The notes under the pieces: generated by a model
What the model was told of the DNA's origin: nothing
What the model saw: only the letters and a program-made list of their open reading frames with translations
The model's database searches: none
Shown here: piece after piece, positions 1-4,551 of the stretch
How the letters are laid out: every line of letters starts with the position of its first letter
Numbering within the stretch: the first letter of the stretch is position 1
Program-made: the position numbers and the translations under genes
From: a virus
Lineage: Duplodnaviria > Heunggongvirae > Uroviricota > Caudoviricetes
IMG/VR virus record: IMGVR_UViG_2541047825_000010
Coordinates: 1 to 12,963 of that record
Reading direction: 5' to 3' (one strand)
Length of the DNA stretch: 12,963 bases

Positions 1-1377
1 TCATACGTCAGCCCCTTGTGCATATCGTCTGCCACGCGCAGCAGGTGCATTTGATGCTGTGCAAATCTGTCTGGCTTCATCCTGGTCACATGCAACAAAG
101 TGTCCGTTGCAGAACCGCTGGTAAACCGTACCAAGTGAGCCAAAACGGTTTTTCGTCACAATGATTTCAGCAAATGGCGCGGCGCTACTGTTCTCGTCAT
201 ATACAGCTTCCCGATAGAGCATGATGATTGAGTCTGCGTCCTGTTCAATGCTTCCTGAATCACGCAAATCTGCGTTTGTCGGGCGTTTGTTTGGTCGCTT
301 CTCAACATCGCGCGAAAGCTGACTCAGGGAGATAACAGGCGTTTTCAGGTCTTTCGCCATCGCCTTCAGGCTTCCGGAGATGTGAGCAATTGCGAGGTCG
401 TTGCGATCTGCTTTCGGCTTCTCAATCAGGCCAAGATAATCCACCATGATGAGTGACAGGTTTGGATTTTCCTGTTTGTGCCGTTCTGCGATTGAGCGTA
501 TTTCTTCGACCGATAACCGCGAGGCATCGACTACCCATACATCCAAATCTGCAAGCTGACTCATGCCGTTAGCAACGCGCGCCCAGCCTTCGTCATCCAT
601 CGATGCAGGATTTCGCAGCACACTAACCGACATCCTCCCGGCGTTGGCAATACTTCGCTCTGCAATCTGCAATGCGCTCATTTCCATTGAGAAAATCAAC
701 ACTCCGCGCCGGACGTCAGAACCAGGAATAACGCGGCTTGCAACGCCTTCGGCAATCTTCAGCGCCAGTTCGGTTTTACCCATACCAGGACGAGCGGCGA
801 TAATCACCAGGTCTTCTGCGTTCATCCCTCCGGTGATGGCGTCAAGTTCGTCGATTCCGGTCTTCAGGGTATCTGACTCTTCTCCGTTCCTCAGACGCCT
901 GTCAAGCGTGTCAGTGTAGTCAGTGATGATTTCCCCTAACCGTACCGGTTTAACCTCGTCACGGGGCTTTCTGATGGCTGAAAGACGCTTTACAAGTTCA
1001 TCCATCGCCTGACTCGATGCGTCGATGGTTCCGCTCTGAATTGGTTCACGCATTTCATCCATGATTTCCAGCACCAGACGGCGGTGATAGTTATCCGCGA
1101 CCATTCCGGCATATCCCTTCAGGTTTGCGGCACTCGGGCAGTTTTTGCTGGTCATCAGGATTGACGTGAAATGCTCCTCTCCGCACGCCTCGGCAACCAT
1201 CAGCGCGTCGATTAAATTTCTGTTTCGCGCCTGCTTGCGGATAACCTCGAAGGCTTTCCGGTAGAGCGGAATTGAAAACGCTTCCGGCTCCAGCGTTGCC
1301 AGAACGTCGCTGGCGGTTGGAGTTAATCCACCAATCAGCAGGCCACCGATAACGCTCGCTTCGATATCCTGTCTCAT
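1..1377 (-). CDS. Replicative DNA helicase, DnaB family (phage P22 gene 12-type), 458 aa
   Basis: Full-length 458-aa ORF. Walker A P-loop [14 protein letters not shown] plus DnaB-like motifs [28 protein letters not shown]. Start ATG overlaps the stop of the upstream O-like gene (ATGA, 1374-1377). Stop codon is at window positions 1-3. Confidence 0.9.
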
Positions 1378-2321
1378 GCAATCCCCCTGTCTGCAAACTT
1401 CCCTTCCCGTACTCCCGTTAACGAATCTTCCCTCAACAGGTAATCAAAATCAGCCGTCCAGCCCGTGTCGTTGTCTCCGAAGTAAAACGGCTTGGCCTGA
1501 TGCACAAACGCCCTGACATACGCTCTGAAACCGTCCACGTTTGGCGTTTTCAGTTGCGGGATGATTTTCTTCAGGCGGCGTTTGCGTTTCTCGTTGACTG
1601 CAACAGCATGTGGAAGTCTGTCACCGACTTCGGTGTTGTAGGCGTTCAGGAAGGATTCGTAGTCGATTCGTTCTGCCTTGCGACGTTCAGGTTTAACCTG
1701 CCCATCGCCGCCCCCATTGGGGGGTAGGGGGGTATTATTTATATTCTTGTTAATACCTTCTTGTTCATGATGTGCGGTTGTTTGTGCGGCTTCATGTGCG
1801 CTTTCATGTGCGGAATGTGCGCTGAAAGCTGCGCCATTACTGGCTTCGTCATGTGCGGCATCATGTGCGGTTGTTTGTGCGGCATCATGTGCGGGTAAAT
1901 TGTCCATTTTTTGAGCATATTCATGGTAATTTGTGATGGTGATCACACGACCTTTTTGCTTCTCTCCATCAATGGAGATCATCCCTTCTTTCACAAAAAC
2001 CTGAAGCATCCGCTCAACCTGATCACGGCTTGCTGGCTTGCCATGTCTGTCGCATAACTGAAGACCTAAATCAGCTGCTGTCACAACCAGTTGACCGGGT
2101 TGCAGATGCCATTCATGACCTTTGAAATTCGCTTTGTATGGCTTTCTGGCGGCATTCAGGAGAAGGTTTTCCCACAGGGTGCGAAGATAAACATCTTTCG
2201 CCCATGACTGTTTCAGAATGCTCCGGTACAACGGAATGTAACCAGTTTTCTGGTTCTCCATCCTGTTGCTCCTGCGCTCGTGTGCGGCGCTGAAATCGTA
2301 GATTTTTGCTGTATTGCTCAT
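1374..2321 (-). CDS. Replication initiator, lambda O / P22 gene 18-like, 315 aa
   Basis: N-terminus [10 protein letters not shown] resembles lambda O (MTNTAKILNF, recalled). Lies between cII and the helicase as in lambdoid replication modules. Its central part is encoded by iteron repeats, giving a His/Ala-rich linker ([18 protein letters not shown]...). Confidence 0.85.
1765..1895. repeat. Candidate origin of replication: iterons inside the O-like gene, next to an AT-rich tract (1731-1764)
   Basis: About seven direct copies of a CATGTGCGG-type motif. The longer unit ATGTGCGGTTGTTTGTGCGGC occurs twice (about 1770 and 1870). The AT-rich block follows in the gene's reading direction, as in lambda ori. 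Confidence 0.6.
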
Positions 2322-2323
2322 AA

Positions 2324-2596
2324 CTACCTGCCTTGACGAAAGACCTTAAGAACATCGTTAAACTGACTTACGGATATGTCTTCTTTGAGAAGCTTTTCCA
2401 GAAATGCGTTTGGAATGAACGTATATCCCTCCTCTTTTGGTAGAGACGGGAGCAACGCCCTCGCCTCAGCCTTCAGAAGCTCAGTTCTGGCAACTTTCAC
2501 AAAAGAGATTTGAGTTCTTTCATCAATGGAACGAAGGAAGCGCAAACGCTTAGCTTCTTTGTGTGTATCAGGTGGATTAAAGCCTTTGTTTCGCAT
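2324..2596 (-). CDS. Hypothetical protein, 90 aa, between cII and the O-like gene
   Basis: Internal ATG at 2594-2596 preceded by a GAGG Shine-Dalgarno. The longer 193-aa track ORF would overlap cII, so the short start is preferred. No motif recognised. Confidence 0.5.
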   Translation of the reverse strand: MRNKGFNPPDTHKEAKRLRFLRSIDERTQISFVKVARTELLKAEARALLPSLPKEEGYTFIPNAFLEKLLKEDISVSQFNDVLKVFRQGR

Positions 2597-2601
2597 ATAA
2601 T
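2573..2601 (+). promoter_or_regulatory. Candidate Po promoter for the oop-like RNA
   Basis: -10 TATAAT at 2596-2601 with a weak -35 TGGATT at 2573-2578 (17-bp spacer), facing the cII 3' end. Confidence 0.4.
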
Positions 2602-2607
2602 TACCTC

Positions 2608-2672
2608 GTTGGATGTTGTTAAAATTCCATTTGTATTTGATCAGAACGCTCGGTTGCCGCCGGGCGTTTTTT
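2608..2672 (+). ncRNA. oop: oop-like antisense RNA overlapping the 3' end of cII
   Basis: 3' portion CAGAACGCTCGGTTGCCGCCGGGCGTTTTTTATT matches the lambda oop 3' end as recalled. Ends in a terminator (stem 2647-2653 / 2660-2666, T-run 2667-2672) lying inside the cII coding 3' end on the opposite strand. 5' end is estimated from the promoter. Confidence 0.55.
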
Positions 2673-2912
2673 ATTGGTGAGAATCGAAGCAACTTGTCGT
2701 GCCAATCGAGCCATGTCGTCGTCAACGACGCCCCATTCAAGAACAGCAAGCAGCATTGAGAACTTTGGAATCCAGTCCCTCTTCCACCTGCTGATCTGCG
2801 ACTTATCAACTCCCACAGCTTCCGCTGTCTTCTCAGTTCCAAGCATTGCGATTTTGTTAAGCAACGCACTCTCGATTCGTAGAGCCTCGTTGCGTTTGTT
2901 TGCACGAACCAT
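2619..2912 (-). CDS. cII: Transcriptional activator CII, 97 aa
   Basis: MVRANKRNEALRIESALLNKIAMLGTEKTAEAVGVDKSQISRWKRDWIPKF... is near-identical to lambda CII as recalled. Upstream context TAAGGAAATACTTACATATG matches lambda. The track ORF start at 2999 is an in-frame upstream extension. Confidence 0.92.
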   Translation of the reverse strand: MVRANKRNEALRIESALLNKIAMLGTEKTAEAVGVDKSQISRWKRDWIPKFSMLLAVLEWGVVDDDMARLARQVASILTNKKRPAATERSDQIQMEF

Positions 2913-3286: not shown

Positions 3287-3937
3287 ATGAAAACTCAATT
3301 GATGGGAGAGCGCATTCGCGCTCGGAGAAAAGAACTCAAGATCAGGCAGGCCGCACTTGGAAAGATGGTCGGCGTGTCTAATGTTGCCATATCTCAGTGG
3401 GAACGCTCTGAGACAGAGCCAAATGGAGAGAATCTTCTCGCCCTGGCTAATGCGTTGAAGTGTTCCCCTGACTATCTGATGAAAGGAGAGGAAAGTCTTT
3501 CAAACATTGCCTATCACAGTAGGCATGATCCAAGAGGGTCATACCCTCTGATTAGCTGGGTGAGCGCAGGATGCTGGATGGAAGCTGTAGAACCATATCA
3601 TAAGCGTGCAATAGATAACTGGTACGATACAACCGTAGACTGTTCAGAAGATTCGTTTTGGTTGGACGTGAAGGGAGACTCAATGACGGCTCCGGCCGGT
3701 CTCAGTATCCCTGAAGGAATGATAATACTCGTCGATCCTGAAGTAGAGCCGCGTAACGGGAAACTGGTAGTTGCAAAGCTCGAAGGAGAAAACGAGGCAA
3801 CTTTCAAGAAGTTAGTTATTGATGCAGGCAGGAAGTTTCTAAAACCACTTAACCCACAATATCCGATGATCGAGATCAACGGAAACTGCAAAATCATCGG
3901 CGTAGTTGTCGATGCAAAACTAGCAAACCTTCCATAA
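3287..3937 (+). CDS. c2: Prophage repressor C2 (CI-type, HTH plus LexA-like S24 autopeptidase domain), 216 aa
   Basis: Near-identical to P22 C2 as recalled (MxTQLMGERIRARRKxLKIRQAALGKMVGVSNVAISQWERSETEPNGENLL..., C-terminal GDSM...KL). Confidence 0.93.
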   Translation: MKTQLMGERIRARRKELKIRQAALGKMVGVSNVAISQWERSETEPNGENLLALANALKCSPDYLMKGEESLSNIAYHSRHDPRGSYPLISWVSAGCWMEAVEPYHKRAIDNWYDTTVDCSEDSFWLDVKGDSMTAPAGLSIPEGMIILVDPEVEPRNGKLVVAKLEGENEATFKKLVIDAGRKFLKPLNPQYPMIEINGNCKIIGVVVDAKLANLP

Positions 3938-4251: not shown

Positions 4252-4551
4252 ATGACAGTAGTCATTACATATCTGGCTGACGATAACGCCAGAAATCGCC
4301 GCAGAGCACGCAGACAGGCTCAACGTGAACAGGCAATGCAAGAGCAGCGACTGGCGCGAAAAATTGCGCTAAAGCTCTCTGGTTGCGTCAGGGCAGATAA
4401 AGCAGCATCACTCGGAAGCCTTCGCTGCAAGAAGGCAGAAGAAGTCGAGCGTAAACAGAACCGTATTTACTACCGCAAGCCACGCAGTGAAATGGGTGTG
4501 ACTTGTGTTGGTCGCCAGAAAATGAAATTAGGCAGCAAACCACTTATTTGA
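4252..4551 (+). CDS. N: Antitermination protein N (P22 gene 24 equivalent), 99 aa
   Basis: N-terminal arginine-rich motif NARNRRRARRQAQREQ. C-terminus ...NRIYYRKPRSEMGVTCVGRQKMKLGSKPLI resembles the lambda N C-terminus as recalled. First gene after PL and nutL. Shine-Dalgarno GGAGG. Confidence 0.85.
   Translation: MTVVITYLADDNARNRRRARRQAQREQAMQEQRLARKIALKLSGCVRADKAASLGSLRCKKAEEVERKQNRIYYRKPRSEMGVTCVGRQKMKLGSKPLI

Follow-up and report, generated by a model that had tools for sequence, protein, structure and literature searches.

Genes and features of the window

The window analysed here, a 12,963-bp stretch of phage DNA (IMG/VR record IMGVR_UViG_2541047825_000010), is 99-100% identical to phage CUS-3 and has further matches to JEP4, Gally and HF4s, all of them P22-like Lederbergvirus. 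Its gene order is reversed relative to the lambda map. The features discussed below lie as follows:

1-1377, minus strand: P/DnaB-like gene
1374-2321, minus strand: O-like replication initiator, 315 aa (Pfam Phage_rep_O, 3e-15)
2324-2596, minus strand: 90-aa ORF, PHROG 2519, occupying the 'orf' position that separates oop from the O-like gene
2573-2578, plus strand: TGGATT, the -35 element implied by the earlier note, with a 17-bp spacer; 3/6 match to TTGACA
2596-2601, plus strand: predicted pO -10, TATAAT; 6/6 consensus, without a TG extension
2608-2673, plus strand: predicted oop-like antisense RNA, about 65-66 nt, with its +1 placed by prediction at G2608
2619-2912, minus strand: cII, 97 aa, lambda type, the antisense target (Pfam Phage_CII, E = 5e-48)
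2643-2672, plus strand: tO intrinsic terminator, a 12-pair GC-rich hairpin plus six T's, within cII codons
3021-3206, minus strand: cro
3287-3937, plus strand: cI
4252-4551, plus strand: N, followed by the Erf and SSB genes

We read cII from the ATG at 2912, which gives a protein of 97 aa with 2 residues different from lambda cII. In the CUS-3 record cII is 126 aa long and starts at 2999. Because the 97-aa form is collinear with lambda cII from the first residue, the deposited CUS-3 start is probably 29 codons too early. The 90-aa ORF begins 23 nt past the cII stop, leaving a 22-nt spacer, and lies ahead of the O-like gene. On the plus strand, an ORF of 48 aa at 2613-2759 was rejected as coding; it has no SD sequence and it crosses the terminator.

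Both oop and the 90-aa ORF are unannotated in CUS-3 and in many related prophage records. The segment that carries the two (coverage of at least 80%) is present in 279 of 5,426 complete E. coli genomes and also in about 50 records of Stx2a-converting phages, so the 90-aa ORF and oop together are a common prophage module.

A predicted antisense RNA gene that ends inside cII

An oop-type antisense RNA gene had been proposed at this position in an earlier note on this DNA, and our analysis bears this out at the level of a predicted RNA. On the plus strand, TATAAT stands 41 nt upstream of an intrinsic terminator that lies inside the 3' end of cII and is identical base for base to lambda tO when the same scan is run on both sequences. 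The scan gives a hairpin at 2643-2670 with 12 pairs and a 4-nt loop, and a T-run at 2667-2672; the fold energy is -21 kcal/mol (z = -3.3). The predicted RNA would begin at G2608, 7 nt past the -10, in the context cctcGTTGGAT (tcctGTTGATA in lambda), and would end, as in lambda, with the T-run and the A that follows it. Counted from G2608 to the T-run it would be about 65 nt long, which agrees with the small size of 65-77 nt suggested earlier. Such an RNA would pair without mismatch with the final 55 nt of cII, stop codon included, and with 11 nt of the spacer between cII and the 90-aa ORF. An overlap of 55 nt with cII is exactly the value found in lambda.

The further claim that the terminator and 3' sequence match lambda oop holds for about 50 nt at the 3' end and does not extend to the 5' ~15 nt or to the promoter region beyond the -10. 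In a pairwise alignment, positions ~2640-2700 of the window have 2 mismatches against lambda tO/cII, and the alignment is recognisable back to the cII stop at 2619-2621, beyond which the two sequences are unrelated apart from the -10. When homology to lambda OOP was sought over the whole RNA, including the 5' stem-loop, it was absent, with only the 3' portion aligning, and folding gave the 5' part a marginal hairpin of 4-6 bp only. Rfam, which apparently has no oop model, returned no match at the gathering score; at a permissive threshold there were chance-level hits to MicC and His_leader (E = 0.6-1.1), driven by the terminator.

We also compared the window with four divergent relatives of the 90-aa variant, from Salmonella, Scandinavium and metagenomes. 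Their 90-aa proteins are 71-80% identical and the ORFs 69-71% identical in nucleotides, and the 90-aa homologue is always preceded, at 23 nt, by a cII-family gene and followed by one that is O-like. A 20-nt block around the -10, CCTTTGTTTCGCATATAATT, is invariant among the relatives, while the putative -35 varies. The terminator hairpin is 98% paired in the relatives, with compensatory changes at two of its pairs (A-U/G-C/U-A at one, G-C/U-A at the other). Across five sequences, the conservation of the -10 block and of the hairpin is supportive of an oop unit rather than conclusive. Conservation of the block could come in part from the constraint of translation initiation on the ORF, and a role as a recombination 'boundary sequence' could account for it as well.

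The predicted pO promoter and its -10 element

TATAAT is not abundant in the window, with 2 copies found on both strands of the 12,963 bp against 5.6 expected. The copy at 2596-2601 had been described as sitting on top of the start codon and ribosome-binding region of the 90-aa ORF on the opposite strand, and this description is accurate: the ATG of the ORF is the 'cat' at 2594-2596, the first base of TATAAT is the complement of the A of that ATG, and the SD sequence GAGG is at 2604-2607. The hexamer TGGATT at 2573-2578 is not conserved, since relatives show TGGATG, TGGTAC or TGGCAT, and because it is both weak (3/6) and unconserved it is probably not a real -35 element. A consensus promoter scan did not call the pO site of the window. 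The scan required at least 4/6 matches in each hexamer, a threshold that the -35 of P22's active pO would likewise miss, so its silence on the window is not decisive. In sum the window pO combines TGGATT (3/6) and no TG with a 6/6 -10, and the P22 pO, which also has a 3/6 -35, is active.

In about 120 IMG/VR loci with the exact tO core, we determined which gene comes first after cII. Nine ORF classes were found: lambda O (299 aa) and ORFs of 90, 86, 53 (in two junction variants), 48, 47, 233 and 266 aa, of which the 86-aa ORF is a homologue of the 90-aa ORF and the 48-aa ORF is of the P22 orf48 type. All of these classes have their ATG within CATAAT or CATATAAT, at a distance of 49-64 nt upstream from the terminator pattern. 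Read backwards, the two hexamers are ATTATG and ATTATATG; as a background figure, 3.9% of the ORF starts across these loci have one or the other. The nine classes that share this -10 have four different second codons. Judging by these junctions, the ancestral and conserved design of the cII junction has the -10 placed over the next gene's start codon.

The -10 comes in two mutually exclusive versions, TGnCATAAT (5/6, extended -10) and CGCATATAAT (6/6, no TG), the second of which is used in the 90-, 86- and 47-aa classes, phi24B included. The best -35 is 3/6 everywhere except in lambda and in the single 233-aa locus (both 4/6), and pO therefore looks as though it depends mainly on its -10. The two versions look like compensation, an extended against a consensus -10, within a promoter that is independent of the -35. 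Given this apparent dependence on the -10, the weak TGGATT is not by itself evidence against pO activity, and we consider it likely that the window pO is active, as predicted.

One further element of the lambda promoter region has no counterpart in the window. Lambda has a LexA-like box, CTGGATCTATCAACAG (38662-38677, 1 mismatch), across +1 to +14 of oop, and we infer that this is the LexA site that PMC5869508 cites from Lewis et al. 1994. In the P22-type variant, CTGGATCAATCCACAG, the LexA-like box is retained, whereas the oop 5' end of the window and phi24B type has nothing similar; a search of window positions 2503-2802 for a LexA-type box gave no match at up to 2 mismatches. The missing box at the oop 5' end suggests that this version of pO may not be under SOS control.

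The overlap is shared with lambda

Lambda OOP, pO and tO are the subject of work by Krinke and Wulff (1987, 1990), Hayes et al. (2012, 2018) and Olszewski et al. (2014). The overlap of the promoter with the start of the next gene had been presented as an arrangement not present in lambda, and here the earlier note is mistaken. The lambda pO -10, CATAAT at 38683-38688, contains the ATG of O (38686-38688), and the lambda oop +1 (38675) adjoins the O SD sequence AGGAG (38676-38680). A promoter scan of lambda gives TTGAGT-17-CATAAT, preceded by TG, with the hexamer including the O ATG. It is true, as had also been stated, that lambda has no gene between cII and O. The reading put forward earlier is thus partly supported, in that the oop gene, the overlap and the size stand while the contrast with lambda fails.

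The geometry can also be read from published work. Olszewski et al. 2014 used a lambda pO- mutation in the -10, and only 2 bp separate it from the first codon of O (PMC3985674); the inactivation of pO in Hayes et al. 2012 was a replacement of 38684-38688 (PMC3349717). The latter study described the layout 'cII-oop-orf-O-P', with orf48 of P22 missing in lambda, and aligned 23 phages (Figs S1/S2), with numbering that starts at the ATG of O (lambda), the P22 orf48 homologue or an HK97 gp53 homologue (PMC3349717). The overlap that had been flagged is a conserved lambdoid design that was already published, and the layout of the window is normal rather than new.

Interpretation and alternatives

The segment 2596-2673 on the plus strand is, very probably, the pO-oop-tO unit of a lambdoid phage that resembles CUS-3 and P22, with a -35-independent promoter and a predicted RNA of about 65 nt. 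RNA polymerase would start near G2608 from a -35-independent promoter with the consensus -10 TATAAT, firing convergently to pR, and transcription would stop at tO inside cII to leave the ~65-nt RNA. Antisense pairing of OOP RNA in lambda is followed by RNase III cleavage. By homology with lambda, the ~65-nt RNA would pair, on the pR transcript, with the 3' end of cII, and RNase III-dependent cleavage would then lower CII and favour lysis. The same homology suggests that convergent pO would dampen pR transcription into the 90-aa ORF, O and P. The 90-aa ORF fills the slot that O holds in lambda and orf48 in P22.

It could instead be that the TATAAT and the terminator are inherited without function, the hairpin being kept for the C-terminus of cII and ATTATATG for the translation start of the ORF, so that no meaningful oop-like RNA is made. 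Several features would fit: a -35 that is both weak and unconserved, a -10 that has no TG, the loss of the LexA box and of a 5' stem of the lambda type, and a conserved block that takes in the SD-ATG spacer and codons 1-5. Yet the hairpin is maintained by compensatory changes in diverged cII genes, the same -10 precedes nine ORF classes with four second codons against the 3.9% background, and oop RNA is made in P22, whose -35 is just as weak. We find functionless inheritance distinctly improbable.

The earlier note had suggested that oop transcription and translation of the 90-aa ORF may interfere with each other. If they were antagonistic in a way specific to this phage, either through a duplex that ends 1 nt from the SD sequence or through promoter occlusion, the 90-aa ORF would have an expression linked to lysis or lysogeny, unlike anything in lambda. 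Two points speak for such a coupling: the predicted RNA has its 5' end (2608) opposite mRNA position -12, beside the SD sequence and within a ribosome footprint, and the 90-aa ORF is a conserved, real gene. The identical geometry is nonetheless found in lambda, where the +1 adjoins the SD sequence in the same way, where oop leaves the stability of O-P mRNA unchanged and where the pO- mutant makes slightly more O (PMC3985674). On these grounds a strong effect of oop on translation of the 90-aa ORF is not expected, and with the geometry shared and the effect on O in lambda small, nothing here is specific to the window phage. Interference between promoter use and translation is also physically loose as a mechanism, because RNA polymerase acts on the DNA and ribosomes on the mRNA; a polymerase sitting at the promoter cannot directly stand in the way of ribosomes on a transcript. 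What is documented for lambda is that pO activity reduces pR read-through into downstream genes by transcriptional interference (PMC3985674). A coupling peculiar to this phage seems to us very unlikely, and we keep to the reading of 2596-2673 as an ordinary pO-oop-tO unit.

Beyond annotation, the unit is of little importance. It is common, Stx2a prophages included. Whichever gene follows cII has the pO -10 built into its start codon, and replication modules can for this reason be exchanged with oop kept.

The 90-aa ORF and the O-like gene

Against its divergent relatives, the 90-aa ORF has a dN/dS of 0.03-0.13, with dS above 2 (saturated), and by this measure of coding constraint it is a real gene. 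Members of the family are 86-90 aa long and have an invariant C-terminus, FRQGR. The protein is assigned to PHROG 2519, a family of unknown function, and one NCBI record labels a 90-aa family member 'replication protein'. Residues 55-88 weakly resemble residues 26-59 of lambda O (34 residues; pairwise BLASTP E = 5e-4), and there is similarity to PHROG 678 at E = 0.009. With Pfam Phage_rep_O (PF04492) the protein scored 14.6 bits, below the gathering cut-off of 28.7, and a PDB profile search gave no match. AlphaFold predicts four helices plus a short hairpin (pLDDT 80.5), and Foldseek found no significant neighbour of this model in PDB or BFVD. A search for longer homologues found none, all homologues being about 90 aa.

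The O-like gene itself starts with the ATG at 2319-2321, and its first codons and upstream bases, with the hexamer CATAAC, resemble the start of lambda O, whose N-terminus is MTNTAKILNF. The stretch GATTTTTGCTGTATTGCTCATAAC at window positions 2296-2330 aligns with the lambda pO region TATTTTTGCTGTATTTGTCATAAT but has lost the T that ends the -10, as well as the TG and the -35. It looks like what remains of a lambda-type pO that decayed, dating from the time when the 90-aa ORF, with a pO of its own, came between oop and O. To trace such an insertion, we looked for an O homologue directly after cII with an intact CATAAT; in the Yersinia and Klebsiella relatives the genes upstream are different ones. 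Further into the O-like gene, at 1764-1906, there are two clusters of repeats with a 12-bp period (..CATGTGCGG.., at least 8 copies) that encode peptide repeats rich in AHD/AHE and are probably the origin iterons of the replication module.

A bolder proposal is that the 90-aa protein derives from the first helices of an O-type initiator, now stands on its own and modulates the initiation of replication. We regard this proposal as unlikely, and the O-related modulator role is speculation. If it were true, having its gene directly at pO would link the amount of the protein to the transcriptional interference of pO and pR by which lambda tunes the firing of its origin. A separate proposal, which we likewise regard as unlikely, is that the CGCATATAAT version of pO, having no LexA box, gives an SOS-independent oop in CUS-3, phi24B and 933W-type phages; shut-off of CII during Stx prophage induction would then be altered. 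A pO without a LexA box is, from the sequences, common to the phi24B-type Stx phages and could matter for models of Stx induction.

Comparison with lambda, Stx phages and P22

The predicted unit resembles that of lambda in being antisense to the cII 3' end with the same 55-nt overlap, in its identical terminator and in its orientation convergent with pR. It also resembles it in having a -10 that holds the start codon of the gene after cII and a +1 that adjoins the SD sequence of that gene. That gene is the 90-aa ORF in the window and O in lambda. At about 65 nt, the predicted RNA is shorter than the 77 nt of lambda because the spacer from cII to the next gene is 22 nt against 32. Its 5' 11 nt are unrelated to those of lambda and the long 5' stem-loop of lambda is absent. 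The -10 is TATAAT without TG, where lambda has TG-n-CATAAT, and the -35 is 3/6 compared with 4/6.

Reviews from the Wegrzyn/Nejman-Falenczyk group speak of 'Stx OOP RNAs'. Stx phages of the phi24B/933W type have the same pO -10 and the same oop 5' end as the window, TTCGCATATAATTACCTCGTTGGATGTTGTTAAAATTCC. In phi24B (HM208303) an unannotated 47-aa ORF (MRKTQENKRVNH...) lies between cII and the annotated O, at locus 1365-1508, and the ATG of this ORF is inside the same CGCATATAAT as in the window. The phi24B terminator differs in having a larger loop (GCTCGGTCTTGCACACCGGGCG). In the literature on oop transcripts in phi24B, 933W and CUS-3 we found only reviews, which state that similar sequences exist; OOP-like sequences are reported for the cII-O regions of Stx phages (PMC5488031).

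P22 is also a Lederbergvirus, and shares with the window a small ORF between oop and the replication initiator, an ATG inside the pO -10 and a weak -35. The ORF of the window (PHROG 2519) is unrelated to orf48, the c1 and terminator sequences differ, and the P22 -10 is TGgCATAAT, the ATG of ORF48 being the CAT within tTGgCATAAT. In a lambda/P22 hybrid, a hybrid pO with the lambda -10 and the P22 -35 still gave functional OOP (PMC3349717). OOP RNA is annotated in the BTP1 transcriptome (PMC7067206), and in P22 itself an oop RNA of 63 nt is abundant in small-RNA-seq of infected cells (PMC13397905).
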